A DNA stretch of 64,000 bases from Escherichia phage vB_EcoP_EP32B. A program made the translations under genes and the position numbers. The DNA lies in the sequence record OR544955. The stretch is one strand, 5' to 3'. Under the pieces are notes generated by a model. That model worked only from the letters and a program-made list of their open reading frames with translations, did no database searches and was not told the DNA's origin. Positions 2,391 to 33,628 of the stretch are shown here, piece after piece; position 1 is the first letter of the stretch; each line of letters starts with the position of its first letter.

Positions 2391-2429
2391 GTAATAAATA
2401 CCCTTATCTATTTAAGGTAAGGGTTTATC

Positions 2430-2903
2430 ATGTTATTATCAGGCGCAAAATATAAAGAAGAAAAACAAAAATTTTATGATGCACAGAATGGTAAGTGTCC
2501 TATTTGCCACCGTGAATTAGACCCTGATGTTCAAGGTAACCATCTTGACCACGACCATGAATTAAACGGGCCAAAAGCCGGTAGAGTTCGTGGGTTACTA
2601 TGTAACCTGTGCAATGCAGCAGAAGGTCAAATGAAGCATAAGTTCAACCGTTCTGGTCTTAAAGGTCAAAACGTTGACTACCTCGAATGGCTTGAAGCTC
2701 TTCTTGCTTATTTGAAACAAGATTATTCTGATAATAATATCCATCCTAATTTTGTTCCAGACAAAACTAAAGAGTTCTCAAGACTAGGTAAAGAGGAAAT
2801 GATGGCCGAGATGCTTCAAAGAGGATTTGAATATAATGAATCTGATACTAAAACACAATTAATAGCTTCATTCAAAAAGCAGCTTAGAAAGAGTTTAAAA
2901 TGA
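2430..2903 (+). CDS. 49: endonuclease VII (Holliday junction resolvase)
   Basis: 157 aa, zinc motif CPIC..C..C, HLDHDHELNGPKAGRVRGLLCNLCN as in T4 gp49. Confidence 0.95.
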   Translation: MLLSGAKYKEEKQKFYDAQNGKCPICHRELDPDVQGNHLDHDHELNGPKAGRVRGLLCNLCNAAEGQMKHKFNRSGLKGQNVDYLEWLEALLAYLKQDYSDNNIHPNFVPDKTKEFSRLGKEEMMAEMLQRGFEYNESDTKTQLIASFKKQLRKSLK

Positions 2904-4717
2904 AAATTGAAAAAGAAATTGAAGGATTAATTCGTAAAACTAATAAAGATCTTTTAAACGAGAATGCTAATAAAGATTCTCGTGTTTTTCCAACTCAACG
3001 GGACCTTATGGCTGGTATTGTGTCTAAGCACATTGCCAAAAATATGGTCCCGTCTTTTATTATGAAAGCGCATGAAAGTGGAATTATCCACATGCATGAT
3101 ATTGATTATTCTCCTGCTCTTCCGTTTACTAATTGTTGTTTAGTCGATTTAAAGGGGATGCTTGAGAACGGATTTAAATTAGGCAATGCTCAAATTGAAA
3201 CGCCTAAATCGATTGGTGTTGCTACTGCAATTATGGCACAAATTACTGCACAAGTTGCTTCACATCAGTATGGCGGAACTACATTTGCAAATGTCGATAA
3301 AGTTCTTTCTCCTTATGTTAAACGCACATACGCTAAACATGTTGAAGATGCGGAAAAATGGCAAATCGCTGATGCGTTGAATTATGCTCAATCCAAAACA
3401 GAAAAAGATGTCTATGACGCGTTCCAAGCTTATGAATATGAAGTAAATACTCTCTTTAGTTCAAATGGGCAAACGCCTTTTGTAACAATTACATTTGGTA
3501 CGGGAACCGACTGGACTGAACGAATGATTCAGAAGGCAATTCTTAAAAACCGCATTAAAGGTCTTGGTCGTGATGGAATAACTCCTATTTTCCCTAAGCT
3601 TGTTATGTTTGTTGAAGAAGGTGTTAATCTTTATAAAGATGATCCGAACTATGATATTAAGCAGCTTGCTCTAGAGTGTGCAAGTAAAAGGATGTATCCT
3701 GACATTATTTCGGTTAAGAATAATAAAGCTATTACCGGTTCTTCAATTCCAGTTTCTCCAATGGGTTGCCGTAGTTTCTTGGGCGTATGGAAAGATTCGA
3801 CTGGTAATGAAATTCTTGATGGACGTAATAATCTCGGTGTTGTAACGCTGAATCTTCCTCGAATTGCGTTAGATTCTTATATTGGAACACAATTTAACGA
3901 ACAGAAATTTGTTGAATTATTCAATGAACGAATGGATTTGTGTTTTGAAGCATTGATGTGTAGAATTAGTTCCTTAAAAGGAGTTAAAGCGACTGTTGCT
4001 CCTATTCTTTACCAAGAAGGTGCATTCGGGGTTCGTCTTAAACCCGATGACGATATAATTGAGTTATTTAAAAACGGTAGAAGTTCAGTGTCCTTAGGAT
4101 ACATTGGTATTCACGAATTGAATATTCTTGTTGGTCGTGATATTGGACAAGAAATTTTAACTAAAATGAATGCTCTTCTTAAACAATGGACTGAAAGAAC
4201 TGGGTTTGCTTTTAGCTTGTATTCTACACCTGCTGAAAACCTTTGTTATCGTTTCTGTAAACTAGACACAGAAAAATATGGAAGTGTAAAGGATGTTACT
4301 GATAAAGGATGGTATACTAACAGTTTCCACGTTTCAGTAGAAGAAAATATTACTCCGTTTGAAAAGATTTCTCGTGAAGCACCATATCATTTCATTGCGA
4401 CAGGTGGTCACATTTCTTATGTTGAACTTCCTGATATGAAAAACAACCTAAAAGGACTTGAGGCTGTATGGGATTATGCTGCACAGCATTTAGATTATTT
4501 TGGTGTTAATATGCCAGTAGATAAATGTTTTACATGTGGAAGTACCCATGAAATGACTCCGACTGAAAATGGATTTGTTTGTTCTATTTGTGGAGAAACT
4601 GATCCTAAAAAGATGAACACAATAAGAAGAACATGCGGCTATTTGGGGAATCCGAACGAACGAGGATTTAATCTCGGCAAAAATAAAGAAATCATGCATA
4701 GGGTTAAACACCAATGA
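2900..4717 (+). CDS. nrdD: anaerobic ribonucleoside-triphosphate reductase NrdD
   Basis: 605 aa continuous ORF, glycyl-radical C-terminus (RRTCGYLG), C-terminal zinc Cys cluster. Confidence 0.95.
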   Translation: MKIEKEIEGLIRKTNKDLLNENANKDSRVFPTQRDLMAGIVSKHIAKNMVPSFIMKAHESGIIHMHDIDYSPALPFTNCCLVDLKGMLENGFKLGNAQIETPKSIGVATAIMAQITAQVASHQYGGTTFANVDKVLSPYVKRTYAKHVEDAEKWQIADALNYAQSKTEKDVYDAFQAYEYEVNTLFSSNGQTPFVTITFGTGTDWTERMIQKAILKNRIKGLGRDGITPIFPKLVMFVEEGVNLYKDDPNYDIKQLALECASKRMYPDIISVKNNKAITGSSIPVSPMGCRSFLGVWKDSTGNEILDGRNNLGVVTLNLPRIALDSYIGTQFNEQKFVELFNERMDLCFEALMCRISSLKGVKATVAPILYQEGAFGVRLKPDDDIIELFKNGRSSVSLGYIGIHELNILVGRDIGQEILTKMNALLKQWTERTGFAFSLYSTPAENLCYRFCKLDTEKYGSVKDVTDKGWYTNSFHVSVEENITPFEKISREAPYHFIATGGHISYVELPDMKNNLKGLEAVWDYAAQHLDYFGVNMPVDKCFTCGSTHEMTPTENGFVCSICGETDPKKMNTIRRTCGYLGNPNERGFNLGKNKEIMHRVKHQ

Positions 4718-5184
4718 ATTATGATAGATTTTATCCTTGCGATTTTGTGAATGGCCCTGGTTGCAGGGTCGTTCTTTTCGTTACGGGTTGTTTGCATAAA
4801 TGCGAAGGGTGTTATAATAAATCAACATGGAATGCTAGAAATGGTACTCCATTCACTGGAGAGACACTAGAACAATTAATTGAATGTTTGAATAATGATT
4901 ATATAGAAGGATTGACTATAACCGGAGGAGACCCTCTCTATCCTGATAACCGAGATGTTATTCATCGCATTGCTCAAACAGTAAAAAATCTTTATCCTAA
5001 TAAAAGCATTTGGTTGTGGACAGGATACAAGTTTGAAGATATTAAACAACTAGAAATGCTTAAATATGTTGATGTTATTATTGATGGGAAGTATGAGAAA
5101 AATCTTCCGACTAAAAAGCTGTGGCGAGGATCAGATAATCAGCGACTTTGGTCAAATACCGATGGGGTGTGGAAACATGATTAA
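4714..5184 (+). CDS. nrdG: anaerobic RNR activating enzyme NrdG (radical SAM)
   Basis: 156 aa, CxxxCxxC (CLHKCEGC), translationally coupled to nrdD. Confidence 0.93.
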   Translation: MNYDRFYPCDFVNGPGCRVVLFVTGCLHKCEGCYNKSTWNARNGTPFTGETLEQLIECLNNDYIEGLTITGGDPLYPDNRDVIHRIAQTVKNLYPNKSIWLWTGYKFEDIKQLEMLKYVDVIIDGKYEKNLPTKKLWRGSDNQRLWSNTDGVWKHD

Positions 5185-5294
5185 ATTGAATTACATTATG
5201 GATACTATAAATGATATGATTTTTCGTTTTGGTCCAGAATTTTATTCGCAATATAGTTTAATGATTATCAATGCTTAGTTAATTAAGGGTAAAT

Positions 5295-5510
5295 ATGTAC
5301 AAATTTCGTAAAGGTTTAGCTGATTTTCTTACAACTGTAACGTTCTTTTTGTTTATGGCAGTTGGAGCTATTTTTCTTATTCCTTTTACTGCTGTATTTT
5401 TCGTGATTAGTTTAATTTCTCCGGAAAAGGGTTTATCCTCCAGCGAATTCAATGAACGTTTGGACAAAATTACTAATAAACTGAATTCTGTTCTTGATAA
5501 AAAGGCTTAA
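5295..5510 (+). CDS. small membrane protein
   Basis: 71 aa, long hydrophobic core. Confidence 0.45.
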   Translation: MYKFRKGLADFLTTVTFFLFMAVGAIFLIPFTAVFFVISLISPEKGLSSSEFNERLDKITNKLNSVLDKKA

Positions 5511-5512
5511 TT

Positions 5513-5821
5513 ATGATTAGTTTTGAGATTGAAATTTATGGCATCCCTGAAGAAGTAGGACGTTGTCCAGGATGTTATACTGTTACAAAACTTTTAAAGG
5601 AACTCAATGCTCCTTATACATTTTATAAAGTCCTCACTAATAATGGTAAGATTGAATATGACCGTCCTTTAATCGTATCTCTTGCTAAACGTGCAGGATT
5701 CACTTCACTTAATATTCGTTATCCTGTCATATTTTTAAATGGTAAGAAACAAAAGAATATTGCAGAGTTTAAAAAGTCCTTGATTTCATTAGGATACGAC
5801 TCTGATATCATAGAAGATTGA
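5513..5821 (+). CDS. nrdH: glutaredoxin-like protein NrdH
   Basis: 102 aa, CPGC redox motif, position after nrdG. Confidence 0.8.
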   Translation: MISFEIEIYGIPEEVGRCPGCYTVTKLLKELNAPYTFYKVLTNNGKIEYDRPLIVSLAKRAGFTSLNIRYPVIFLNGKKQKNIAEFKKSLISLGYDSDIIED

Positions 5822-7088: not shown

Positions 7089-7328
7089 ATGGCCCAAGAA
7101 TTAGATTTTATCAAATTCAAAAAACACCTCGACGTTAAAATTGGGGATTCAATTGTTAGGATTGAGTATGACATTTTAACAGATGCTATTACTGTTAGTT
7201 GTGATGGAAATAGTTTCAGCTTCGATACAACCGAAAACAAATACCCAATATATAAAGGTATCTTTGATATGGGTGTCGATATCAGCCCACGCGATACAAA
7301 TTACTTGCTTTTCATGCTTAAAAAATAG
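7089..7328 (+). CDS. hypothetical protein
   Basis: 79-aa ORF with RBS. Confidence 0.45.
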   Translation: MAQELDFIKFKKHLDVKIGDSIVRIEYDILTDAITVSCDGNSFSFDTTENKYPIYKGIFDMGVDISPRDTNYLLFMLKK

Positions 7329-7358
7329 TGTACAGACTCTTGAGAGCAGAGTATAATG
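7328..7358 (+). promoter_or_regulatory. early promoter
   Basis: -35 TGTACA, 17-nt spacer, -10 TATAAT; duplicate of 51186-51216. Confidence 0.6.
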
Positions 7359-7394
7359 CCCTCGTTGGATAATAAAATAACCGAGGAAAATAAT

Positions 7395-7727
7395 ATGTCT
7401 ACTAAAATCAAAAACGTAGTTAATTCTTTCGCTTTCGATAAAGTTGTTGCTCTTCTGGAATCCGGCAATATTGTTACTCCTCAAGTTCTTGACGCGTGGG
7501 AATTCCGTCTTTATGAAATCATGCAAAAACACGACCAGAAAATTGGACGTAATTCTATTCGTGAAATTCTAGTACAATATATTCTTTCTGAATTTGACGT
7601 TGCTGCATTTGGTGTTGAATCTAAAGCTTATCAGAAACATGAAATCTCTGAAAAGACTATCCGTCGTATGAAAAATCAACGTAAGAAAAAATTCGCTGAC
7701 TTGAAAATTGTTAAGGCGGTAAAATGA
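7395..7727 (+). CDS. hypothetical protein
   Basis: RBS GAGGAAAATAAT, downstream of early promoter 7328-7358. Confidence 0.5.
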   Translation: MSTKIKNVVNSFAFDKVVALLESGNIVTPQVLDAWEFRLYEIMQKHDQKIGRNSIREILVQYILSEFDVAAFGVESKAYQKHEISEKTIRRMKNQRKKKFADLKIVKAVK

Positions 7728-7951
7728 GCGTATTAACAGAAACTTTGATTAATGACCTGCGTCTAGCTGGTTACGAAGTTGGTACAAATAGCCTAGGTCT
7801 TCCTCAGATTGAAGGTCCTGGATTTATTTTGGAATATGAATTCAAACAATGGTGGTTATATGCTACGGTTGACGATGCGTTGAATATTGATTTCGTTGAC
7901 CAATTTGATTCGCTGGATGCTGCTCTTGAAGCAGCAAAGGAACTAGAATGA
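7724..7951 (+). CDS. hypothetical protein
   Basis: ATGA-coupled ORF. Confidence 0.5.
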   Translation: MSVLTETLINDLRLAGYEVGTNSLGLPQIEGPGFILEYEFKQWWLYATVDDALNIDFVDQFDSLDAALEAAKELE

Positions 7952-8217
7952 AATTAACTCGAATCAGTATAACTGAAGAAAAGCTGGGCGAATTTTATGT
8001 TGACGAATACATGAAAGTTACGTATTTTCCATTCGTTAAAGGTGTTGGTTTTTGGGAAACTCATGTATCTCAATTAAACGAAGGCGACTATAACGAAACA
8101 CATGAGAACTTTTTAGATTTTCTTTATAATGCCGGTCTTACTGAGCTTTATATCGATATCCATGAGTTCAAACGTTTAATGGAAAAAGTGTTTCAGGCTT
8201 ATTGTTTGCTCCGATAG
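7948..8217 (+). CDS. hypothetical protein
   Basis: ATGA-coupled ORF. Confidence 0.5.
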   Translation: MKLTRISITEEKLGEFYVDEYMKVTYFPFVKGVGFWETHVSQLNEGDYNETHENFLDFLYNAGLTELYIDIHEFKRLMEKVFQAYCLLR

Positions 8218-8224
8218 TATCTCG

Positions 8225-8268
8225 TGCTTTAAGATAGGTCTCTAAATATTATGATATAATAGACCTAT
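8225..8268 (+). promoter_or_regulatory. gene 55 promoter region: MotA box plus -10, with 8-bp inverted repeat around a second TATAAT
   Basis: TGCTTTA 8225-31; TAAATAT 8243-49; IR ATAGGTCT 8234-41 / AGACCTAT 8261-68. Confidence 0.5.
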
Positions 8269-8289
8269 GAATTGAGCCAAGAGGTACTT

Positions 8290-8847
8290 ATGACTGAACA
8301 AAAACCTAAAAATAACTATGTGAATAATAAAGAGCTTCTCGCCGCTATAATCGAGTGGAAAAAGGAGCTCTTAAATAATAAAGACCCAAACAAAATTATT
8401 CGTCAGAATGATACCATCGGTTTAGCAATTATGCTTATCGCCGAAGGCCTGTCCAAACGTTTCAACTTTTCAGGATATACCCAGTCTTGGAAGCAGGAGA
8501 TGATTGCAGATGGGATTGAAGCCTCTATTAAGGGACTTCATAATTTCGACGAAACTAAGTACAATAACCCACATGCATACATAACTCGAGCTTGTTTTAA
8601 TGCTTTTGTCCAACGTATCAAAAAAGAACGTAAGGAAGTTGCAAAGAAATATAGTTACTTCGTTCATAATGTCTACGACAGTCATGACGATGATATGGTA
8701 GCGTTGGTAGATGAAACGTTTATTCAAGACATCTACGATAAAATGACGCATTATGAAGAATCCGCTTATAAAGCTCCTGGGGCTGAAAAGAAGGAAGTTG
8801 TTAGCGATTCGCCTAGTTTGGATTTTTTATATGAGGATGACAATTGA
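8290..8847 (+). CDS. 55: late-transcription sigma factor gp55
   Basis: 185 aa, [61 protein letters not shown], recalled T4 gp55 match. Confidence 0.93.
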
Positions 8848-9046
8848 CATCTCTAACTACTTAGAAGAACCTTTTGACGAAGCAATCCCTTATTTGGTAA
8901 AACTGTTGGGTCGTGAATTTAAAATTAATTTTGACATCGACCCTTTGAACCCACACGACGTGTCATTTTCGATAAATGGGACTCCAGTTGAGTACGAGTT
9001 CTGTATTGAAGAGGATGGACGTTTTTATTTTAATTTAATGAGATAA
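8831..9046 (+). CDS. hypothetical protein
   Basis: overlaps gene 55 end; start uncertain (8831 or 8837). Confidence 0.35.
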
Positions 9047-16374: not shown

Positions 16375-19059
16375 ATGAAAGAATTTTACTTAACGGTTGA
16401 ACAGATTGGTGATTCAATTTTTGAACGTTACATCGATTCTAATGGCCGTGAACGTACTCGTGAAGTAGAATATAAACCATCACTGTTTGCTCATTGTCCA
16501 GAAAGTCAGGCTACGAAATATTTCGATATCTACGGTAAGCCGTGTACTCGTAAGTTGTTCGCTAATATGCGTGATGCCTCCCAATGGATTAAACGTATGG
16601 AAGATATCGGACTTGAAGCACTTGGCATGGACGATTTCAAATTGGCGTATTTGTCTGACACTTATAACTATGAAATCAAATACGACCATACAAAAATTCG
16701 TGTGGCTAACTTCGACATCGAAGTAACATCTCCGGACGGGTTCCCTGAGCCGTCACAAGCAAAACATCCGATTGATGCTATCACCCATTATGACTCAATT
16801 GACGACAGGTTCTACGTATTTGATCTATTGAATTCTCCATATGGTAATGTAGAAGAATGGTCTATCGAAATTGCAGCTAAGCTTCAAGAACAAGGTGGTG
16901 ATGAAGTTCCATCCGAAATTATCGATAAAATCATTTATATGCCGTTCGATAACGAAAAAGAATTGTTGATGGAATATCTCAACTTCTGGCAACAGAAAAC
17001 TCCTGTCATTTTGACTGGATGGAACGTTGAGTCATTTGATATTCCATATGTGTATAACCGAATCAAGAATATTTTTGGCGAATCTACTGCGAAACGTTTA
17101 TCACCACATCGTAAAACTCGTGTTAAAGTTATCGAAAACATGTATGGTTCTCGTGAAATCATTACATTGTTCGGTATCTCTGTTCTTGATTATATTGACC
17201 TTTACAAAAAATTCTCTTTTACCAATCAACCGTCGTATTCTCTGGATTACATTTCAGAATTTGAATTGAACGTTGGTAAACTGAAATACGACGGTCCTAT
17301 TTCTAAACTTCGTTATAACATCATCGACGTATATCGTGTATTGCAAATTGATGCTAAACGCCAGTTCATTAACTTGAGTTTGGACATGGGTTATTATGCT
17401 AAGATACAGATTCAATCTGTGTTTAGCCCAATTAAAACATGGGATGCTATTATTTTTAATAGCCTTAAAGAACAAAACAAGGTGATTCCACAAGGTCGTT
17501 CGCATCCAGTTCAACCTTACCCGGGTGCTTTTGTTAAGGAACCTATTCCAAATCGATACAAATATGTAATGAGTTTCGACCTTACATCTCTGTATCCAAG
17601 TATTATTCGCCAAGTGAATATTAGCCCGGAAACAATAGCAGGAACGTTTAAAGTAGCTCCACTGCATGATTATATTAACGCAATCGCTGAACGTCCTTCA
17701 GATGTGTACAGTTGCTCTCCTAACGGCATGATGTATTATAAAGACCGTGACGGTGTTGTTCCAACTGAAATCACTAAGGTCTTTAATCAACGTAAAGAAC
17801 ATAAAGGTTATATGCTTGCAGCTCAACGTAATGGTGAAATAATTAAAGAGGCATTGCATAATCCTAATCTTTCTGTTGACGAACCATTAGATGTTGATTA
17901 TCGTTTCGACTTCAGCGATGAGATTAAAGAAAAGATTAAAAAGTTGTCTGCTAAATCTCTTAATGAAATGTTGTTTAGAGCTCAACGTACTGAAGTTGCA
18001 GGTATGACTGCACAGATTAACCGTAAATTGCTTATCAACTCACTTTATGGTGCACTTGGAAACGTTTGGTTCCGTTATTATGATTTGCGTAATGCTACTG
18101 CAATCACAACATTCGGACAAATGGCTTTACAGTGGATTGAACGTAAAGTTAATGAATATCTGAATGAAGTTTGCGGTACAGAAGGTGAAGCTTTCGTTCT
18201 TTATGGTGATACAGACTCTATTTACGTATCTGCTGATAAAATTATCGATAAGGTTGGTGAATCTAAATTCCGTGATACCAACCATTGGGTAGACTTCTTA
18301 GATAAGTTCGCTCGTGAACGTATGGAACCTGCTATTGATAGAGGTTTCCGTGAAATGTGCGAATACATGAATAATAAGCAACATTTGATGTTCATGGACC
18401 GAGAAGCTATCGCTGGTCCTCCGCTCGGTTCTAAAGGTATTGGTGGATTTTGGACTGGTAAGAAACGTTATGCATTAAACGTGTGGGATATGGAAGGTAC
18501 TCGTTACGCTGAGCCTAAACTCAAAATCATGGGTCTAGAGACTCAGAAATCTTCGACACCTAAAGCAGTACAGAAAGCTCTTAAAGAATGTATTCGTCGT
18601 ATGCTTCAAGAAGGTGAAGAATCATTACAAGAATATTTTAAAGAGTTTGAAAAAGAATTCCGTCAATTGAATTATATTAGCATCGCGTCGGTATCTTCTG
18701 CGAATAACATTGCTAAATATGATGTCGGTGGATTCCCTGGCCCCAAATGTCCGTTCCATATTCGTGGAATTCTGACATATAACCGAGCTATCAAAGGTAA
18801 TATCGATGCACCGCAAGTTGTAGAAGGTGAAAAAGTATATGTTCTGCCTTTACGTGAAGGAAACCCATTCGGTGATAAATGTATCGCATGGCCTTCTGGT
18901 ACGGAAATCACTGATTTAATCAAAGATGATGTACTTCATTGGATGGACTACACGGTTCTCCTTGAGAAGACATTTATTAAACCACTTGAAGGATTCACAT
19001 CAGCAGCTAAACTCGATTACGAGAAGAAAGCATCTCTGTTCGATATGTTTGATTTTTGA
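16375..19059 (+). CDS. 43: DNA polymerase gp43 (family B, RB69-type numbering)
   Basis: 894 aa; Exo I FDIE (D114/E116), D222, YGDTDS, KILINSLYG; strong match to recalled RB69 gp43. Confidence 0.97.
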   Translation: MKEFYLTVEQIGDSIFERYIDSNGRERTREVEYKPSLFAHCPESQATKYFDIYGKPCTRKLFANMRDASQWIKRMEDIGLEALGMDDFKLAYLSDTYNYEIKYDHTKIRVANFDIEVTSPDGFPEPSQAKHPIDAITHYDSIDDRFYVFDLLNSPYGNVEEWSIEIAAKLQEQGGDEVPSEIIDKIIYMPFDNEKELLMEYLNFWQQKTPVILTGWNVESFDIPYVYNRIKNIFGESTAKRLSPHRKTRVKVIENMYGSREIITLFGISVLDYIDLYKKFSFTNQPSYSLDYISEFELNVGKLKYDGPISKLRYNIIDVYRVLQIDAKRQFINLSLDMGYYAKIQIQSVFSPIKTWDAIIFNSLKEQNKVIPQGRSHPVQPYPGAFVKEPIPNRYKYVMSFDLTSLYPSIIRQVNISPETIAGTFKVAPLHDYINAIAERPSDVYSCSPNGMMYYKDRDGVVPTEITKVFNQRKEHKGYMLAAQRNGEIIKEALHNPNLSVDEPLDVDYRFDFSDEIKEKIKKLSAKSLNEMLFRAQRTEVAGMTAQINRKLLINSLYGALGNVWFRYYDLRNATAITTFGQMALQWIERKVNEYLNEVCGTEGEAFVLYGDTDSIYVSADKIIDKVGESKFRDTNHWVDFLDKFARERMEPAIDRGFREMCEYMNNKQHLMFMDREAIAGPPLGSKGIGGFWTGKKRYALNVWDMEGTRYAEPKLKIMGLETQKSSTPKAVQKALKECIRRMLQEGEESLQEYFKEFEKEFRQLNYISIASVSSANNIAKYDVGGFPGPKCPFHIRGILTYNRAIKGNIDAPQVVEGEKVYVLPLREGNPFGDKCIAWPSGTEITDLIKDDVLHWMDYTVLLEKTFIKPLEGFTSAAKLDYEKKASLFDMFDF

Positions 19060-19099
19060 TATAATGCCAAGGACGGCCAACTAATTAAATGAGAGAAAT

Positions 19100-19408
19100 A
19101 TGAAAACTACTCCTATTACTATCGCTATTGACGCAATCATAAAACAAGCTTCTTCTTTGGCCGCTATGGCCAAAGTAATTAGTCAAAACCCTGCTCGTTA
19201 TAATGCTATTCTAGAAACTCTTCGACGCCCTGGACTGAGTAATTATGAAAGTCGTGTAATTATTACAGGTGTTGGTAAGAACGCTAATATCGCAACTAAA
19301 GCTTCCGAGACATTTGCTTCACTCGGTATCCCGAGTATGTACTTGAACACTGGGCATTATTCTCACGGTGATGCAGGATTCATTGCGCCTAATGAGGCAT
19401 CGCGGTAG
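19100..19408 (+). CDS. KdsD/GutQ-like SIS-domain sugar-phosphate isomerase, N-terminal part (gene frameshifted, continues 19396-19575)
   Basis: ITGVGKNANIATK..TFASLGIPS..HGD; downstream frame has LAPTMSTT and HPGGALG. Confidence 0.6.
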   Translation: MKTTPITIAIDAIIKQASSLAAMAKVISQNPARYNAILETLRRPGLSNYESRVIITGVGKNANIATKASETFASLGIPSMYLNTGHYSHGDAGFIAPNEASR

Positions 19409-19575
19409 AGGTTGATGAGAATTCTCTGGCTCCGACAATGTCTACTACATTGTTGTTAGCGCTTATCGATACGTTCGCTATCAACCTTTCGTCTGAACGT
19501 GGATTTACCTCTAATGATTTCCTTAAGTTCCATCCAGGCGGTGCACTAGGTGCCATGTTACGAGGCGAACAATGA
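19396..19575 (+). pseudogene. C-terminal segment of the SIS isomerase in the -1 frame
   Basis: open frame from 19396 encoding GIAVEVDENSLAPTMSTT...GFTSNDFLKFHPGGALG, no start codon. Confidence 0.55.
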
Positions 19576-19715
19576 AAGCAATAACAATAGGACTTTTACT
19601 ATTGATGCTTGTCATGACTATCTACTGGAGCTTAACGGCTCCGGTAATGATTCCAACACTTGTAATTGGATGGATTATGATTGGACTACAAGCAAAGTAT
19701 GAATGCTTTAACTAG
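19572..19715 (+). CDS. small membrane protein (47 aa)
   Basis: ATGA overlap, hydrophobic. Confidence 0.4.
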   Translation: MKAITIGLLLLMLVMTIYWSLTAPVMIPTLVIGWIMIGLQAKYECFN

Positions 19716-19756
19716 AATAGTGTACAATACACCTACTTACCAATGAGGACTTCAAC

Positions 19757-21442
19757 ATGAAAAAAGCTGTTATTCTTGGTGCTGGACTGGCAACTCGTTT
19801 GTATCCAATAACGCATCATATTCCAAAAGTTCTTGTGAACTATAAACAAGACACTATTCTGAGCAATTTGTATACAATTTATTCTGACCTTGGCGCAGAT
19901 GAAATTATTGTAGTAGTTCATTCAAAATTTGCTGAAACTGTTCGAGCTTATTGTGAGCAAGAAGGGTTCAATGTGACTATTCGTACAGTTGATGAAGCGT
20001 ATGGTTCTGCTTATGCTCTTGCTAAATTACACAAAGATTTAGATGGCCATAACGTAATTGTTAACTGGTGTGATATTATTCCTGATTTTGGTTCATGGTC
20101 TTGGAATGTTAATGCAATCTATGTTAAGGGTGACGAATGTCGATATAATTTTGACGGTGAAAATATCACTAACGTAGGTTCAACAGGTGGTAATGTTGTA
20201 GGAATTTATCAGTTCAAAGACTGGGAATTCTACATGGGTTCTACTGATGAGGAAATTCACGAATACTGCAAAGGTCGTGATTTCGTAGAATTCCTTTACG
20301 GCAGCGCATTCAATAAATCAGAGCTTATGAATCTAATTGATTTAGGTGATATGCCTAAACTTGAAAAAGCTCATGAAGTTCGTGAACTTAATCGTAGTTT
20401 TAATGCAGTTGAAATTGGTGAAGAAACTGTAACTAAATTCGCATTAACCGAACAAGGTCGAGCTCTTCAAAAAGATGAGATTTCATGGTATTTGAAAGTG
20501 AAATCAGATTCAGTTCCTCAGTTAGTTTCGGTAAATGAAAATAATTTTGAAATGGAACGCATTAAAGGTAAGCCGGCATTTGAATATATTAAATCCAAAT
20601 CAAGTCTTGCTCGTCCACAAATTGTTGATGCAATTTTAGATGCACTGAAATTCAGCACAGACACTTATTTTGTAAGTCCTGAAACTGTTCGTCGTGATTT
20701 CACTAAAGAATTCTATACGAAAGTTATTGATCGTTGTGAAAGCATTCAGCCATTGATTGATTCATTTGGTAAAATCACACACGTGAACTACACTAAGATT
20801 GGACGTCTGAAGCCAATGCTGAAGCAAGCTTTAGAACATCTTATTCGTTATCATACCCGTTCTCAGGGACAGTACTCTGTTATTCATGGTGACCCGAACT
20901 TCAGTAATACTATGATTACTGATAATGGCGAAGTCAAGTTTATCGACCCTCGTGGATATTTTGGCGAAACCAAGATTTACGGGCCAAAATTGTACGATGA
21001 AGCTAAAGTGCTTTATGCTGTTTCAGGTTATGATGAATTCAACGCTAATCCGACCTGGGGACAGTTTACTATTGACGAAACAACTTGTAATGTGACTATT
21101 AACATCAATCCATTAGTTTACAAATATGGAAAGATGAGTTCGTTTAACGAGTATCATCATTTGGCTGTAGCAATTATCTGGATTGCATTAGGTGGTTATT
21201 TCAAGAATAATCCACTTAAAGCGGTAGCCGCATATTATAAAGGTATGGAACTTCTGACTAAGCAATTACGTAACATGGGCCGTGTACTTCAAGACGGCTC
21301 TATTAGTTATGACGTAGCAGAACCTGTAACGGCTACTCTGATTACAAAAAATCCTGGTAAATGGGTACTAACTGATAAAGAAACTGGTGTTTCTTATCGT
21401 CCAATCGGTGGCGATATCACTCATCAATGGGAACGAATCTAA
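19757..21442 (+). CDS. bifunctional sugar-1-phosphate nucleotidyltransferase / sugar kinase (APH-choline-kinase-like)
   Basis: N-term GAGLATRL; C-term HGDPNFSN catalytic loop and IDPRG; 561 aa. Confidence 0.75.
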   Translation: MKKAVILGAGLATRLYPITHHIPKVLVNYKQDTILSNLYTIYSDLGADEIIVVVHSKFAETVRAYCEQEGFNVTIRTVDEAYGSAYALAKLHKDLDGHNVIVNWCDIIPDFGSWSWNVNAIYVKGDECRYNFDGENITNVGSTGGNVVGIYQFKDWEFYMGSTDEEIHEYCKGRDFVEFLYGSAFNKSELMNLIDLGDMPKLEKAHEVRELNRSFNAVEIGEETVTKFALTEQGRALQKDEISWYLKVKSDSVPQLVSVNENNFEMERIKGKPAFEYIKSKSSLARPQIVDAILDALKFSTDTYFVSPETVRRDFTKEFYTKVIDRCESIQPLIDSFGKITHVNYTKIGRLKPMLKQALEHLIRYHTRSQGQYSVIHGDPNFSNTMITDNGEVKFIDPRGYFGETKIYGPKLYDEAKVLYAVSGYDEFNANPTWGQFTIDETTCNVTININPLVYKYGKMSSFNEYHHLAVAIIWIALGGYFKNNPLKAVAAYYKGMELLTKQLRNMGRVLQDGSISYDVAEPVTATLITKNPGKWVLTDKETGVSYRPIGGDITHQWERI

Positions 21443-21828
21443 TGCACCGTGTAGAAAACATGCTTAATCTTTGTTTTGATGTCGATGATTGTATAACAGA
21501 GTGGAATAACAATCGTGATTACGTGAACTTCAAACCAGACGTCGAAATGGTGACTGCTATTAATGCCCTGTATGATGCAGGGCATACCATAACGCTTTAC
21601 ACTGCTCGTGGTATGAAGTCAGTAGGTCCTGGTCGTATAGCAATTGACATTCTCCCAAGTCTGATTCAGAACTTGGAAAACATTGGTTTGAAGTACCATA
21701 ATTTGCTAACACATAAACCAGTATATGATTGGATTATCGACGACAAAGCTATGCGTCCCGACGAATTCAAAGCTCTTATGAATAAAGGCGAATTCGAAAC
21801 ATTTAAATCATATAAACCGAATCTATAA
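21442..21828 (+). CDS. HAD-superfamily phosphatase
   Basis: motif I FDVDDCIT (DxDxT); TAATG coupling. Confidence 0.65.
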   Translation: MHRVENMLNLCFDVDDCITEWNNNRDYVNFKPDVEMVTAINALYDAGHTITLYTARGMKSVGPGRIAIDILPSLIQNLENIGLKYHNLLTHKPVYDWIIDDKAMRPDEFKALMNKGEFETFKSYKPNL

Positions 21829-21884
21829 TAATTTAAGTAAGACCTGCAAAAACCATCGCATAAATTAACGTGAGATGCAAAAAA

Positions 21885-23045
21885 ATGAATACTTTTAAAA
21901 TTGGAACGAATTTTGATTTAGCTCTTCTTGATAAAATCGTAGAGCTCAATAAAACTTATCCTAATAGCTTGATAAACGAAGTATACGGCTCTACAAGAGA
22001 AATGGCTTTTGTAGCAGCCAGACCTGATTTTAGGCTTCCTGACGTTGACAAAAAGATGTTAGAAGATTACGTTAAACGTTGTAACGAATTAGGTATTTGC
22101 TTTAACTATACACTCAACACGATAAATCCTGGTTCAAAAAGAGAACTAGTCGAGTGGAAGAAGAAAGCTATTCAGGATTATGTTCAGTATCTTTGGTCAA
22201 TAGGCGTATGGCGTATTACTATCGCTAACCCTGTTGTTATGGAAATTGTTCGTGAAGTCAATAAAGACATTGAGATTGAAGTTTCAACAATTCTACATGT
22301 CGATGCTGTAACTCAAATAAAATACTTGCATGACCAATATAATATCAAAAAGGTCTGCTGTGGAATTCATAAGAACCGTTCAGTTTCTTTCCTGAAGCGT
22401 GCAGCAGAGTTTTGCAATAAGAACAATATAATATTTGAAGTTCTTGTAAATGAGTTCTGTTCTAATGCTGGTAAAGGGTATACAACACATTGTAGCTATC
22501 GTGACTCTTGCTATATTTTCCATAGTACTGATGTTACAGCCGATGATGCTAAATCCTTAAACGGGTATCCTATGCAGCACTGTATTAAAGCTCGTGATAC
22601 AGACCCATTTAACTGGTTGAGAACTCGTTTTGTTCGTCCTCAAGATTTGAAACTTTATAATGATATTGGTATCACTCAATTCAAAGTTTCAGGACGTACA
22701 GGTAGCACAGACTACATTTTGAAAGTTCTTGAAGCATACGCTTCTGAAAAGTTTGAAGGTAATTTGTTAGAACTGTGGAAGCCTTTAGAGACTATTTTCA
22801 CTCTTGAAAATGAAACTGAGTTTTCACATACAGTAAATATTGAAACCTCTTTGTTAGATGGCTTTTTAGAAAAAAGGTGGTTCAGACATCCAGATTTTGA
22901 TTGTGCTAATGAAATCTGTGGATCAACGTGTACATATTGTGAAAGATATTATAAACGTCAATTATCTAAAAACGGGTTAGCAGAAAACTCTATATCTATT
23001 ATTGATATAACTAACTCTGATGACGCTTTGAGGTACCCGGAATGA
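21885..23045 (+). CDS. hypothetical protein with Cys-rich C-terminus; faint peptidase-U32-like motif
   Basis: 386 aa; NEFCSNAGKGYTTHCS and CANEICGSTCTYC. Confidence 0.5.
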   Translation: MNTFKIGTNFDLALLDKIVELNKTYPNSLINEVYGSTREMAFVAARPDFRLPDVDKKMLEDYVKRCNELGICFNYTLNTINPGSKRELVEWKKKAIQDYVQYLWSIGVWRITIANPVVMEIVREVNKDIEIEVSTILHVDAVTQIKYLHDQYNIKKVCCGIHKNRSVSFLKRAAEFCNKNNIIFEVLVNEFCSNAGKGYTTHCSYRDSCYIFHSTDVTADDAKSLNGYPMQHCIKARDTDPFNWLRTRFVRPQDLKLYNDIGITQFKVSGRTGSTDYILKVLEAYASEKFEGNLLELWKPLETIFTLENETEFSHTVNIETSLLDGFLEKRWFRHPDFDCANEICGSTCTYCERYYKRQLSKNGLAENSISIIDITNSDDALRYPE

Positions 23046-23323
23046 TTTCTAGAAAAACTTTTAATCACCAACTTAATGAAGAGATTTTGACTATTAAAAT
23101 TAACACTAACGAACAAATTCTTAAAAAGGCCCTTATGGGCCTGTTTGAAACTAAAGCGGCTAAAGTGATTAAAGAACCTGTTCAATTGGAATACTACGCT
23201 GATGCATTTCTTCATAGTGTTCTTGGAAGTATCGATGCTGAAGCTTTACGTTATATCAACATTGTCAAGAAATTCAAATAAGCTTTACGAATTGAGTATA
23301 TAATAAATTGTATTGAGGTAAAC

Positions 23324-24040
23324 ATGGGAAAACATAACACAATGAAATATATCAAAGCCGCAGATTTTCAAACCGCATTTAAAGCAGTCAATCGTGAAAT
23401 TTTAGAAAACCCGGAATTCGTAACTGATTCTCGTATTGGACGTTGTAATGAAATTGGGTCTATGACAGTAGTTGTTGACACTCCATCATCATTCAAAATG
23501 ACCGACCCGCGTATTAACCGCATCTCTTATGAATATGCCGAAGACTTCTGGAAGTTTATGATTTCTGGTGGTACTGACGCAGAAGAAGCGTTTAAGGCAT
23601 ATCCTAATGTCGCTAAATTTATTTCTAAACCAAAATCAGATGCTTTGCCTGCAAACTTCAACACTTTCTATGGTCCTCGCATTGCGGCCCAATTACCAGC
23701 TCTTCTAAAAGAACTTAAAGAGAAGCCTAACTCCAGAAGAGTTGTGTTCCAAATTCTAGAAAGTTCTGATCAGGCTTTGCTTGATTCGGACGAAACGCTT
23801 GAATATCCATGTACTGACTCAGTGACTTATTATATTCGTGACGGTAAGCTTTATACCCACTGTCATATGCGTTCCCAGAACTGTGCTGTTGTTATGCAGT
23901 TGGATTTTTATCTCCAAGGAAAATTACTTCATTATATCGCTAACGAATGCGGTGTAGAAGTTGGTGATTATACTCATACCATGGTAAGTGCCCATGTGTT
24001 TGAACGTGATTTTGATTATGTTAAAGGATTCCTTGACTAA
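23324..24040 (+). CDS. thymidylate-synthase-family deoxypyrimidylate hydroxymethylase (gene 42 position)
   Basis: NSRR, catalytic Cys in YPCT, MRSQN..D; RBS GAGG. Confidence 0.65.
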   Translation: MGKHNTMKYIKAADFQTAFKAVNREILENPEFVTDSRIGRCNEIGSMTVVVDTPSSFKMTDPRINRISYEYAEDFWKFMISGGTDAEEAFKAYPNVAKFISKPKSDALPANFNTFYGPRIAAQLPALLKELKEKPNSRRVVFQILESSDQALLDSDETLEYPCTDSVTYYIRDGKLYTHCHMRSQNCAVVMQLDFYLQGKLLHYIANECGVEVGDYTHTMVSAHVFERDFDYVKGFLD

Positions 24041-24939
24041 TGGCTATTTTCCGCGTACCAATCTTGAGTATGCGGTCTTATGAAACTGGTCAGTATGCTA
24101 TCCTTAAGGATGGCAACTTCCAACTTCATTTGCACCGTGCTAATCCGGGTGATGTGATTACATATCCACGTAATGCATCTGATATTAAAGAATGCGAACG
24201 TCTTTTTCCGGAATTTAAGTTTGTTCCATTATGGTATAAAGATAACGCGTATAACACTCGTAAATATTTCTGGTCTGAAAATGAATTTGTGGTTGATTCA
24301 TTAATTGCTTATTATGATTGTGATTTTCTAATCACAGATATCACTGGTTATGATGGCGCTTTTGACGTAGAATTCAATTTCAATATCACTGCAGACCCTA
24401 ATAAACCACGTTTTTATATTGATGAATTCTTAAAAACTGATATGTTGTCGGTTAATCGTTCACTTCAAACTACTGTGTTGAATGAACGTCAAAAAGAAGT
24501 GCTGGTTAACGCAGGTGCAGATGGTAATAAGATTATCGTAACGCAGAAAGTTATACGTCCTTCCGTCATGCAGCGTCTTGTAGGTGATTTGGCTCCTATT
24601 CATCTAGATGGTATTTTTCATCCATTTCGAATTAGTGACCCATGCTATCGTTTTGAACAAGTGGTTGAATGCGCAATTCAATTAGGTCAACCGCTTTATA
24701 TAACTGATCCAAATAATAGTTTCGACAGAAATAAGTATCCTGAAGAAGCGCTGATTCGAATTTTTAATCCAACTAAAACTGAGTACTATCAAATTCTTAA
24801 AGGACGTCCGAAGATTCAATATTTCGAAAATCCTGAAGAAGTATTCCATCCAGGTCTTGGTGAGTTCATCTACTTTAATGCTTTAATTTCTTCACCGTAT
24901 AATATACCTAAATACGAAGATGTCGTAATCGAGGAATAA
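24040..24939 (+). CDS. hypothetical protein (beta-gt position, no recognisable motifs)
   Basis: 299-aa ORF coupled ATGGCT after TAA. Confidence 0.5.
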   Translation: MAIFRVPILSMRSYETGQYAILKDGNFQLHLHRANPGDVITYPRNASDIKECERLFPEFKFVPLWYKDNAYNTRKYFWSENEFVVDSLIAYYDCDFLITDITGYDGAFDVEFNFNITADPNKPRFYIDEFLKTDMLSVNRSLQTTVLNERQKEVLVNAGADGNKIIVTQKVIRPSVMQRLVGDLAPIHLDGIFHPFRISDPCYRFEQVVECAIQLGQPLYITDPNNSFDRNKYPEEALIRIFNPTKTEYYQILKGRPKIQYFENPEEVFHPGLGEFIYFNALISSPYNIPKYEDVVIEE

Positions 24940-24940
24940 A

Positions 24941-25489
24941 ATGGCTAAAATTATTTTAGTAGACGGGCCGGATAATGCTGGTAAAACAACTTTCATTAAT
25001 GACATAATGGAAATTAGTGAAAGATATGTAAAGATTGATTTCCCTAAACGAACAGTTGATGGGCGTTTCGATGTTAAGTCTCGAAATGAAGTCGGCTGTT
25101 TCGAAACGATGTTGAATTATTTGGACCCTACTAAGATTTATCTGTTAGACCGTGGATATATTAGTAACTGGGTTTATGGACGTATTCGACAAGATGTGGA
25201 CTCGGTTCTTGACGTTTATGAACAGGATTATGTTCGTCTTTGCCAAAACCATGATGTGTTCACAATTATTTTAACACGTAACGAAATGACTGAAAGTTTT
25301 GAAGACGACCTTATTACTTTGTCTTCATTCGGTTTTAATACAGTCATTTCATATTTTGAAGAGTTTGCAATTCATAACAAAATCCAAACGTATCAATTAC
25401 TTAATCATGATGGTGCTAATAAAGTTATAGGATTTAACGCAAGCGAACGTAATAATTTGATTACAGAAATCATCAAATGGGCTCGTTAA
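24941..25489 (+). CDS. P-loop nucleotide kinase-like protein
   Basis: ILVDGPDNAGKTTF Walker A; 182 aa. Confidence 0.6.
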   Translation: MAKIILVDGPDNAGKTTFINDIMEISERYVKIDFPKRTVDGRFDVKSRNEVGCFETMLNYLDPTKIYLLDRGYISNWVYGRIRQDVDSVLDVYEQDYVRLCQNHDVFTIILTRNEMTESFEDDLITLSSFGFNTVISYFEEFAIHNKIQTYQLLNHDGANKVIGFNASERNNLITEIIKWAR

Positions 25490-25587
25490 GAGCCATTTAA
25501 AGTTTTAAATGCTGTATAACCCTTAGTATATAATCATCTTATCTTTTAAACATGAGTAAAATATAATGATGCCTATGGAAAAATACA

Positions 25588-26760
25588 ATGTCTGATTTAA
25601 AATCTCGTCTGATTAAAGCTTCTACTTCTAAAATGACTGCAGACTTGACTAAGTCTAAGCTGTTTAATAATCGTGATGAAGTCCCTACTCGTATTCCGAT
25701 GTTGAATATTGCATTAGGTGGTGCACTGAATGCCGGGTTGCAATCAGGCTTAACTATTTTTGCTGCTCCTTCTAAACACTTTAAAACGTTGTTTGGACTA
25801 ACTATGGTTGCAGCGTATATGAAGAAATATAAAGATGCAATCTGTTTGTTTTATGACTCAGAATTCGGTGCTTCGGAATCTTATTTTCGTTCAATGGGTG
25901 TTGATTTAGACCGTGTAGTTCATACTCCGATTCAATCTGTCGAACAACTTAAGGTTGATATGACTAATCAGCTTGACGCGATTGAACGCGGTGATAAAGT
26001 TATTATCTTTATCGATTCAATCGGTAATACTGCATCTAAGAAAGAAACCGAAGATGCGTTGAACGAGAAAGTTGTAGGTGATATGTCTCGTGCTAAGGCA
26101 CTTAAATCTCTGTTCCGCATTGTGACTCCTTATCTGACTATTAAAGATATTCCGTGTGTTGCAATTAACCATACTGCAATGGAAATTGGCGGACTATATC
26201 CTAAAGAGATTATGGGCGGTGGTACAGGTATTCTTTATTCTGCCAACACGGTATTTTTTATCTCTAAACGTCAGGTTAAAGAAGGTACAGAATTGACCGG
26301 TTATGACTTTACGTTGAAAGCGGAAAAATCTCGTACAGTTAAAGAGAAATCTACTTTCCCGATCACGGTTAATTTTGATGGCGGTATTGACCCATTCAGT
26401 GGCTTGTTAGAAATGGCAACTGAAATTGGATTTGTTGTTAAGCCTAAAGCCGGGTGGTATGCTCGTGAATTCCTTGACGAAGAAACAGGTGAAATGATTC
26501 GTGAAGAAAAATCATGGCGTGCTAAAGCTACTGATTGTGTAGAATTCTGGGGACCTTTGTTTAAACACAAACCTTTCCGAGATGCAATTGAAACTAAATA
26601 TAAACTAGGTGCTATCTCTTCTATTAAAGAAGTTGATGACGCTGTTAACGACCTTATTAATTGCAAAGCAACAACTAAAGTTCCGGTTAAAACTTCTGAT
26701 GCTCCGTCTGCAGCAGATATAGAAAACGACCTTGACGAAATGGAAGATTTCGATGAATAA
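25588..26760 (+). CDS. uvsX: recombinase UvsX (RecA-like)
   Basis: 390 aa, RecA fold motifs, recalled T4 UvsX match. Confidence 0.96.
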   Translation: MSDLKSRLIKASTSKMTADLTKSKLFNNRDEVPTRIPMLNIALGGALNAGLQSGLTIFAAPSKHFKTLFGLTMVAAYMKKYKDAICLFYDSEFGASESYFRSMGVDLDRVVHTPIQSVEQLKVDMTNQLDAIERGDKVIIFIDSIGNTASKKETEDALNEKVVGDMSRAKALKSLFRIVTPYLTIKDIPCVAINHTAMEIGGLYPKEIMGGGTGILYSANTVFFISKRQVKEGTELTGYDFTLKAEKSRTVKEKSTFPITVNFDGGIDPFSGLLEMATEIGFVVKPKAGWYAREFLDEETGEMIREEKSWRAKATDCVEFWGPLFKHKPFRDAIETKYKLGAISSIKEVDDAVNDLINCKATTKVPVKTSDAPSAADIENDLDEMEDFDE

Positions 26761-33313: not shown

Positions 33314-33628
33314 ATGGCGCACTTTAATGAATGTTCACAACTTATTTCTGGTGTTGATAAAGCAGAAGAAGCTTATTTTAATGCTCTGATTCACGAAGAT
33401 AAAGACCCACTTCAGGTAATGCTTGATATGCAGAAATCTTTACAGGTTCGTCTGGCAAATGACAAGCCTGAACATAACAAACATCCTGATGAATTGGCTA
33501 CTGCCGGTGATGTTGTTGATTGGCTGCGTAATCAGAAAGATTATATTGATGATGAATTCCGTGAACTGTTGACTTCACTTGGTGGTATGATTATAAATAC
33601 ACCTGTAATTAAACAACAAAGGAGTTAA
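33314..33628 (+). CDS. MazG-like all-alpha NTP pyrophosphatase (gene 56 dCTPase-like), possibly short
   Basis: 104 aa; DDEFRELL motif; position after 61. Confidence 0.45.
   Translation: MAHFNECSQLISGVDKAEEAYFNALIHEDKDPLQVMLDMQKSLQVRLANDKPEHNKHPDELATAGDVVDWLRNQKDYIDDEFRELLTSLGGMIINTPVIKQQRS
33592..33599 (+). promoter_or_regulatory. late promoter TATAAATA for soc
   Basis: exact TATAAATA about 32 nt upstream of soc ATG. Confidence 0.7.

Follow-up and report, generated by a model that had tools for sequence, protein, structure and literature searches.

An RB69-type arabinosyl-5-hydroxycytosine gene cluster in Escherichia phage vB_EcoP_EP32B and a candidate oxygen-independent role for its U32-family protein

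Introduction

Escherichia phage vB_EcoP_EP32B (record OR544955) carries, between gene 43 and uvsX, a block of co-oriented genes that resembles the DNA hypermodification cluster of phages RB69 and HY126. The block is described here as it appears in a 64,000-nt stretch of the phage sequence, the whole of which is referred to below as the window. The module as such is already known and was described in papers published from 2018 to 2026. The Afh arabinosyl-5-hydroxycytosine cluster of RB69 and HY126 is reportedly also the subject of He et al. (Nat Chem Biol 2026) and Mahler et al. (Cell Host Microbe 2025).

Arabinose in the DNA of RB69 was reported in 2018 by Thomas et al. (PMC6024577), who proposed arabinosyl-hydroxymethylcytosine (ara-hmC) as the modified base and implicated ORF055c, ORF53_52c and ORF003c. 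This assignment was later called erroneous, and 5-arabinosyl-deoxycytidine (5-ara-dC) was independently confirmed in the Mosigvirus NP (PMC13390438). By mass spectrometry and nuclear magnetic resonance (NMR), Lee et al. (NAR 2026, PMC13326640) found the arabinose of RB69 DNA to be ether-linked to C5, which means that the base derives from 5-hydroxycytosine; the modified base is arabosyl-O-5-cytosine, i.e. mono- and di-arabinosyl-5-hydroxycytosine. In the same work, RB69 gp48 was shown to make 5-hydroxy-dCMP from dCMP with oxygen from 18O2 and to bind flavin mononucleotide (FMN), and an Asn at the position of ThyA Asp169 was given as diagnostic of 5-hydroxy-dCMP synthases, the Asp being kept in other enzymes of the thymidylate synthase (TS) family. 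Arabinosyl-5-hydroxy-dC has been shown in virion DNA for RB69 (PMC13326640) and phage NP (PMC13390438), phages other than the one studied here.

For the sugar, the work of He et al. on phage HY126 is summarized in the available text of PMC13326640. According to that summary, AfhE is both an arabinose-5-phosphate (A5P) 1-kinase and a UDP-arabinose pyrophosphorylase, which converts A5P to arabinose-1,5-bisphosphate and later yields UDP-arabinose, and AfhF removes the 5-phosphate from the bisphosphate to give arabinose-1-phosphate. RB69 gp52:53 and gp51 are there called analogous to AfhE and AfhF, respectively. As for the transfer of the sugar, Lee et al. (PMC13326640) predict that gp46:47 is arabinosyltransferase 1 and that gp3 is transferase 2.

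An original prediction, made from the letters of the block, had taken it for a sugar-nucleotide and modified-deoxycytidylate module that makes an NDP-arabinose donor, an identification that holds. That prediction rediscovers the published system with an outdated chemistry. What is of value are three corrections to it, namely that the base is not hydroxymethylcytosine but 5-hydroxycytosine, that transferases are present in the window, and that this copy has a broken isomerase gene. One new lead was obtained, on the role of a U32-family protein encoded in the block.

Results

Position, extent and relatives of the block

The block occupies exactly positions 19100-25489 of the window and is flanked by gp43 (16375-19059) and uvsX (25588-26760), as read from the list of open reading frames (ORFs). 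Both these coordinates and the placement in the slot that holds imm, 42 and beta-gt in T4 agree with the original prediction. That prediction had counted seven co-oriented genes; the common orientation stands, while the ORF list gives nine, two conserved ORFs of 47 and 79 aa having been missed. The GC content of the block is 0.33-0.41, uniform with the flanks.

A megablast search with positions 19060-25560 matched 258 phage records, 151 of which cover at least 80% of the query. The 40 best records, all of them RB69-like Mosigviruses of E. coli and Shigella, were 97.6-98.5% identical to it at the DNA level, with 100% of the query covered in Mosigviruses that include RB69, and the gene order is that of RB69 gp55 to gp45 and of AlbertHofmann bas47_0153 to 0145. 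Taken together, the ~98% identity and the shared order mark the window as a close relative of RB69, and the earlier attribution to the RB69 group is thereby confirmed. We assign a probability of about 0.92 to the reading of the block as the gene cluster by which RB69/HY126-type Mosigviruses hypermodify their DNA with arabinosyl-5-hydroxycytosine.

In the RB69 reference record (L001; L numbers designate the loci compared), the genes for the 561-aa and 299-aa proteins discussed below are each split into two ORFs (4505-5545 / 3859-4524 and 8142-9042). Unlike in that record, both genes are single ORFs in the window, in agreement with the report that the RB69 splits are sequencing errors (PMC13326640).

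The thymidylate-synthase-fold enzyme

The gene at 23324-24040 (+ strand) encodes a 238-aa homolog of RB69 gp48, which its Pfam and PDB matches and its residue signature identify as a TS-fold, flavin/O2-dependent 5-hydroxy-dCMP synthase. It matches Pfam Thymidylat_synt with an E value of 2e-15 and is identical at 235 of 238 positions to PDB 9IQC/9IR2, structures from phage HY126. It has Asn at ThyA-Asp169, Asp at Asn177 and Glu at Leu143 (D169N, N177D, L143E), with the motifs MRSQN...D and EYPCT, and in an alignment to the TS 4dq1, RSaD pairs with RSqN and pfN with qlD. The same signature was present in all six TS-like homologs aligned. The Asp expected at ThyA-169 in a T4-type gp42 is replaced by Asn in the window protein; consequently, of the TS-family hydroxymethylase originally proposed, the family is retained and the hydroxymethylase activity is not, given D169N and the hydroxylation of dCMP by RB69 gp48.

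The older scheme, in which a folate-dependent dCMP hydroxymethylase leads through hmC to ara-hmC and NDP-arabinose is made via free arabinose, would accord with the membership of the 238-aa protein in the TS/dCMP-hydroxymethylase superfamily and with the 2018 report on RB69 (PMC6024577). In the folate site of the protein, however, Asn stands in place of Asp169, RB69 gp48 takes up 18O from O2 and binds FMN, the NMR data place an ether link at C5, the hmC assignment has been called erroneous (PMC13390438), and HY126 AfhE and AfhF work via arabinose-1,5-bisphosphate. This scheme is already refuted for RB69 and we regard it as extremely improbable here. The arabinosyl-hmC attributed to RB69-like phages in the original prediction is accordingly replaced by arabinosyl-5-hydroxycytosine (PMC13326640, PMC13390438).

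In the arabinosyl-5-hydroxycytosine pathway, the TS-fold enzyme would turn dCMP into 5-hydroxy-dCMP with reduced flavin and O2. The dCTPase (gp56) would keep dCTP out of the pool. Together with a dNMP kinase, which like the dCTPase is encoded outside the block, it would steer 5-hydroxy-dCMP into DNA in place of dC. As a side observation, in two loci that contain distant transferase homologs and no U32 gene (L020, 605-1123 and 5944-9607; L021, 6739-9594), a Flavodoxin_2 gene of the NAD(P)H:flavin reductase type precedes or lies near a TS-like gene, a transferase gene and a ~181-aa ORF, in L021 a kinase homolog, in that order. Such a neighbour fits the need of the hydroxylase for reduced flavin.

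Enzymes of UDP-arabinose formation

The window also contains the bifunctional and the HAD enzymes needed for UDP-arabinose. The gene at 19757-21442 (+) encodes a 561-aa homolog of RB69 gp52:53 with an N-terminal sugar-1-phosphate nucleotidylyltransferase and a C-terminal APH/choline-kinase-like sugar kinase, the very fusion that had been predicted. Pfam NTP_transferase covers residues 3-99 (E 8e-10), and NCBIfam sugar-1-phosphate nucleotidylyltransferase models and PDB 1jyk were also matched; the kinase half gave weak APH/fructosamine-kinase matches at residues 354-405, around HGDPNFSN. The following gene, at 21427-21828 (+), encodes a 133-aa homolog of RB69 gp51. Its recognition as a HAD phosphatase was borne out by TIGR01689, a capsule-biosynthesis HAD phosphatase family (E 2e-13), and by near identity to PDB 9IQW over residues 5-133 (E 1e-86).

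In the proposed route, A5P would come from the phage isomerase where that gene is intact, or be supplied by KdsD/GutQ of the host. Within the 561-aa enzyme, the kinase domain would add a phosphate at C1 of A5P, the HAD phosphatase would take off the 5-phosphate from the resulting arabinose-1,5-bisphosphate, and the nucleotidyltransferase domain would convert arabinose-1-phosphate to UDP-arabinofuranose. These steps were shown for HY126 AfhE and AfhF and probably carry over to the window enzymes, given the near-identity of the proteins. The route through free arabinose that had been drawn up for the block (A5P to arabinose to arabinose-1-phosphate) does not agree with that of HY126, in which no free arabinose appears. 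Likewise, the statement that the enzymes are not biochemically defined is now outdated for three of them, namely the hydroxylase, the phosphatase and the bifunctional enzyme (PMC13326640).

Glycosyltransferases and the P-loop kinase

The original prediction had left a 299-aa protein unassigned and found no alpha-gt or beta-gt homolog in the window. Two glycosyltransferase (GT) genes of the GT-B type are present. The 299-aa protein, encoded directly after the hydroxylase at 24040-24939 (+), is a homolog of RB69 gp46:47 recognized by hidden Markov model and fold, and is proposed to be the base-proximal arabinosyltransferase 1, which would attach the first arabinose to the 5-OH. A second GT-B arabinosyltransferase, homologous to RB69 ORF003c and the HY126 GT, lies outside the block at 45031-46115 (+) and is predicted to attach the second arabinose. 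It is not intact in the window: compared with two references, a 16-bp deletion at ~45615 shifts its frame and leaves two ORFs, of 196 and 154 aa, which match residues 4-199 and 216-369 of PDB 9IQZ ('phage HY126 glycosyltransferase').

The last gene of the block (24941-25489, +) encodes a 182-aa thymidylate-kinase (TMPK)-like protein homologous to RB69 gp45. It had been listed as a P-loop kinase, which agrees with its match to the PHROG 'thymidylate kinase' (phrog_761, E 7e-45) and with a weak NCBIfam dTMP kinase match. It probably phosphorylates the modified dNMP. A homolog was present in every Straboviridae module checked; in L021 one follows directly after the TS-like and transferase genes (E 5e-17), and TMPK-like genes are found near U32 in L041 and L051. 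PDB sequence searches with the kinase returned chance-level matches only (E 0.06 or worse), and those with the U32 and 299-aa proteins returned no match.

The isomerase gene and other deletions in the window

The first gene of the block had been described as a KdsD/GutQ-like SIS isomerase with HGD and HPGGALG motifs. In the window this gene is broken. Relative to the isomerase genes of RB69 and AlbertHofmann, 160 bp are absent after position 19395 (by alignment), a deletion that shifts the frame and takes out residues ~99-152, and with them the phosphate-binding loop (ISRSGKTEE) of the SIS domain. What remains is a 5' fragment at 19100-19408 (+), which encodes 102 aa of an arabinose-5-phosphate isomerase homologous to RB69 gp55 (ORF list, alignment and PHROG 5670), and a 3' remnant at 19396-19575 (+), out of frame with respect to the ATG at 19100, the translations of which include ...FHPGGALGAMLRGEQ up to a stop codon. 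HPGGALG, within 19396-19575, therefore sits in a different frame from HGD. The fragment matches PHROG 5670 'arabinose 5-phosphate isomerase' at profile positions 2-98 of 210 only and gave no Pfam SIS match, in contrast to the intact RB69 protein, which matches PF01380; the SxSGxT loop of an intact SIS domain falls inside the deleted 160 bp. Among the families originally proposed for profile searching, NTP_transferase, HAD, TS and kinase were thus recovered, and the SIS match was lost through truncation. Because the isomerase gene is broken, the enzyme set encoded in the window is not sufficient for NDP-arabinose, as had been claimed.

Comparison of the window with RB69 and O157 typing phage 3 revealed ~17 deletions of 4 to ~594 bp, at the same places against both, and no insertion of more than 3 bp. 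Deletion sites include 1541, 2385, 5527, 6216, 11165, 12817, 17332, 19395, 30920, 31073, 31458, 33590, 33758, 36063 and 45615. In gp46 an 88-bp deletion shifts the frame, gp43 has an in-frame loss of 27 bp (9 codons), and the dCTPase (gp56) gene at 33314-33628 (+) is cut to about 104 aa by a deletion that measures 250-594 bp against every relative. The junction of the isomerase deletion was absent from the 150 phage records that cover it, each of which aligns in two pieces 160 bp apart, and an exact search of IMG/VR contigs gave none; the gp46 and gp56 junctions were found in no other phage record.

As they affect essential genes, the deletions are in our view sequence defects, most likely artefacts of damage or mis-assembly rather than biology. 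One could also suppose that they are real, and that the phage no longer has an isomerase or a second transferase of its own, takes A5P from host KdsD/GutQ and has DNA that is only mono-arabinosylated. E. coli produces A5P for the synthesis of 3-deoxy-D-manno-octulosonate (KDO). A phage isomerase is dispensable in principle, as the module of the Dhakavirus Bp7 has none and yet contains the nucleotidyltransferase-kinase, HAD, kinase, TS-like and GT genes, and the isomerase was unmatched in four of 15 Straboviridae loci covered by the census described below. Such a loss would, however, have to account for ~17 deletions against two independent references with none of the larger insertions, for the frameshifted gp46, the truncated dCTPase and the shortened gp43, and for junctions that recur in no other phage record or, for the isomerase, in no IMG/VR contig. 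A phage bearing all these lesions is unlikely to be viable, and we consider real deletions improbable.

The U32-family protein

The gene at 21885-23045 (+) encodes a 386-aa homolog of RB69 gp50, originally set down as a Cys-rich unknown. Its richness in Cys is real, 10 Cys being invariant in 51 homologs, and the protein can now be placed in the U32 family: it has the Peptidase_U32 domain (PF01136, E 7e-11) and TIM-barrel fold. When aligned by hhalign to RlhA (E 1.4e-5, probability 80%), its C203 and C209 (spacing CX5C) correspond to RlhA C169 and C176, although a MAFFT alignment placed C203 and C209 differently relative to the RlhA cysteines. A profile of the phage U32 family scored RlhA, TrhP, UbiU and UbiV weakly, and the phage protein is therefore not assignable to any of these four E. 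coli subfamilies.

U32 is the best-conserved protein of the module. Its identity to the homologs of Serratia LC53 and Shewanella Thanatos-2 is 84% and 79%, respectively, as compared with 81% and 72% for the TS-like enzyme, 70% and 68% for UvsX, and 60% and 48% for the 299-aa glycosyltransferase.

RlhA (5-hydroxycytidine in 23S rRNA), TrhP (5-hydroxyuridine in tRNA) and UbiU/UbiV are tied to O2-independent hydroxylations that need prephenate and Fe-S clusters. Chorismate mutase (CM) is the enzyme that produces prephenate. We propose that the phage U32 protein is a prephenate-dependent, O2-independent pyrimidine C5 hydroxylase, accompanied in most related genera by an adjacent phage CM. The U32 protein would make the 5-hydroxy-dC precursor under conditions that disable the flavin/O2 enzyme, such as those of the anoxic gut, and many other viruses would have it as their only hydroxylase. 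We give this proposal, which is inferred from gene context, an even chance. The protein would then provide a second route to the same 5-hydroxypyrimidine during infection of anaerobically growing hosts. In the literature searched, He et al. 2026 and Mahler et al. 2025 aside, nothing was found that ties U32, prephenate or chorismate mutase to phage DNA modification.

Gene neighbourhoods of U32 homologs

A census was made of 33 U32 loci outside Straboviridae, with flanks of up to 10 kb on each side, and of 15 Straboviridae loci. Within the latter family, a CM_2 domain above the Pfam cut-off is encoded next after U32 in Serratia LC53, Shewanella Thanatos-2, Klebsiella F48 and Edwardsiella PEi20, and in Yersinia phiR1-RT it follows with the small g049 ORF in between; in Thanatos the U32-CM pair has been relocated as a unit. 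No CM adjoins U32 in the window, so that Mosigviruses would rely on host PheA/TyrA. The place is taken by a conserved 79-aa ORF (23042-23281, +; RB69 ORF049c, phrog_8601), which is 48% identical to phiR1-RT g049, and phiR1-RT has its CM_2 gene separately, as g048. The possibility that the 79-aa ORF is itself a chorismate mutase, as annotated at this place in Entb_45 and LC53, was rejected: a search with a cut-off as lenient as E 10 gave no CM_2 match, and its identity to true CMs is no more than 15-23%.

Outside Straboviridae, U32 homologs with 44-58% identity are frequently encountered in contigs from viruses and metagenomes. A TS-family gene lay within the fetched flanks of only one of the 33 loci, and a homolog of the 299-aa transferase was found in 17. 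In nine of these 17 the transferase is immediately upstream of U32 (L016, L022, L023, L024, L041, L045, L046, L052, L063), and eight loci combine isomerase, nucleotidyltransferase-kinase, transferase and U32 (L047, L048, L049, L051, L054, L055, L059, L064). The transferase thus has the TS-like hydroxylase, U32 or the two together as its partner, as would be expected of two proteins that supply the same acceptor. A CM domain is found next to U32 in at least 10 of the 33 loci, with a 55-bit CM_2 match in L053, and L051 has a fusion of 3-deoxy-D-arabino-heptulosonate 7-phosphate (DAHP) synthase with CM (7302-8357; 125 + 65 bits) one gene upstream of U32. These viruses may boost the shikimate pathway to supply prephenate. 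In other loci U32 lies among genes for thymidylate kinase, uracil-DNA glycosylase, dCMP deaminase, dUTPase, NT5C and deoxynucleoside kinase.

Two further observations were made in these neighbourhoods. An 80-kb Logan contig has a DAHP_synth_1 gene directly after U32. A radical SAM/SPASM gene recurs no more than two genes away from the transferase-U32 pair in the non-Straboviridae viral loci L022 (7980-9011), L024 (7972-9000), L013 (12160-13185) and L012 (1-249), and could belong to a further base or sugar modification.

The U32 gene is not a constant part of the module. The Acinetobacter phages have the remaining genes and no U32; among the organism names listed for 221 records it was absent from them, as against 57 Acinetobacter phages with the nucleotidyltransferase-kinase. 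The module of Escherichia phage Bp7 (L010, 7971-12151), in which imm is still next to gp43, contains no isomerase, U32 or CM and looks like the minimal core of the system. That U32 strictly tracks the use of oxygen by the host was considered and holds only in part, the E. coli Dhakavirus Bp7 being also without it. The fact that the Dhakavirus and Acinetobacter modules do without U32 limits the hydroxylase proposal.

It also lends some weight to the view that the protein is not a hydroxylase, and acts instead as a reductase on a sugar or heterocycle, or as a peptidase/collagenase. Table 1 of Lee et al. labels RB69 gp50 a 'sugar or heterocycle reductase', without discussion (PMC13326640), some U32 proteins have been reported as collagenases, and no U32 protein has so far been reconstituted as a hydroxylase in vitro. 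Against this, RlhA, TrhP and UbiU/V, the only three U32 systems for which a cellular role has been defined, are all linked to O2-independent, prephenate-dependent C-hydroxylation, and the product of RlhA is 5-hydroxycytidine. Moreover, a true CM follows U32 in five other genera and accompanies it in many unrelated viral loci, in one case as the DAHP-synthase fusion, and 32 of the 33 loci outside Straboviridae have no TS-like gene in the fetched flanks and often have the same GT and arabinose genes beside U32. We therefore consider a non-hydroxylase function the less probable of the two, and doubtful.

Elsewhere in the window, at about 2400-5000, an anaerobic ribonucleotide reductase (nrdD/nrdG) was located by synteny with L003 and RB69. 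Its presence shows a phage equipped for O2-free replication, though the known dCMP hydroxylase needs O2. The block also contains a conserved ORF for a 47-aa predicted membrane protein (19572-19715, +), of the RB69 ORF054c family (phrog_3610, E 7e-27), which is annotated in RB69, AlbertHofmann and LC53.

Discussion

Several points weigh against the assignment of the block to a working arabinosyl-5-hydroxycytosine pathway. With the isomerase, second transferase and dCTPase genes broken in the window, the pathway as encoded is incomplete. Purified DLP3 GTs, when tested singly, were inactive on 5-hydroxycytosine (5hoC)-DNA (PMC13326640), and a demonstration of arabinosyltransferase 1 activity was not found in the literature searched, He et al. 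2026 and Mahler et al. 2025 aside. The functions given here for the U32 protein and the TMPK-like kinase are predictions. Given the inactivity of the isolated transferases and the usual closeness of a TMPK-like gene to the transferase, the conserved trio of hydroxylase, GT-B enzyme and TMPK-like kinase may mean that the nucleotide, and not DNA, receives the first sugar; this is offered as speculation.

If the U32 proposal is true, the phage protein would be the first U32 enzyme in DNA-base biosynthesis and would form, after TrhO/TrhP, UbiIHF/UbiUV and the RlhA case, a fourth pair of an aerobic enzyme with an anaerobic U32 back-up. These phages have gut bacteria as hosts and encode an anaerobic ribonucleotide reductase, and an O2-free route would explain how their DNA is protected in anoxic hosts. 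The large and poorly understood U32 family would gain a tractable nucleotide substrate, and many uncultured viruses would be expected to glycosylate hydroxypyrimidines without a TS homolog.

Among described U32 proteins, RlhA (ho5C2501), TrhP (ho5U34) and UbiU/UbiV (anaerobic ubiquinone hydroxylation) have the Pfam domain and fold in common with the phage protein, and the essential C169 and C176 of RlhA align with Cys of the latter by hhalign, though not in the same way by MAFFT. Their prephenate link is matched in relatives of the phage U32 by genetic linkage to prephenate supply, and the E. coli cases back up O2-dependent enzymes, TrhO for TrhP and UbiI/H/F for UbiU/V. The phage protein differs in forming a distinct, distant subfamily with a C-terminal CX4CX3CX2C motif of its own, and in its presumed substrate, a deoxynucleotide or DNA as opposed to RNA or quinone. 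For the isomerase, the comparison is with KdsD/GutQ/KpsF: the N-terminal 99 residues of the window fragment match the phage isomerase family and KdsD, whereas from the SIS phosphate-binding loop onward the sequence is either missing or in another frame, and even the intact phage isomerase (211 aa) is without the CBS domain pair.

T4 fills the same slot between gene 43 and uvsX with gene 42 and the alpha/beta-glucosyltransferases, and its glucosyl-hmC system follows the same logic, with a TS-fold enzyme that acts on dCMP, a dCTPase that keeps dCTP out of the pool and GT-B enzymes for the attachment of the sugar. The two differ in that T4 uses folate-dependent hydroxymethylation and host UDP-glucose, whereas the present system would use hydroxylation with flavin and O2 (D169N) and arabinofuranose from phage-made UDP-arabinofuranose; the link at C5 is here an ether, with no methylene bridge. 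The closest system is the RB69 gp45-gp55 / HY126 Afh cluster, which has the same genes in the same order at ~98% DNA identity to the window, and the hydroxylase, phosphatase and second GT of the window are nearly identical to solved HY126 structures. The window differs from this cluster in the deletions, unique to it, that its isomerase, second GT and dCTPase genes carry.

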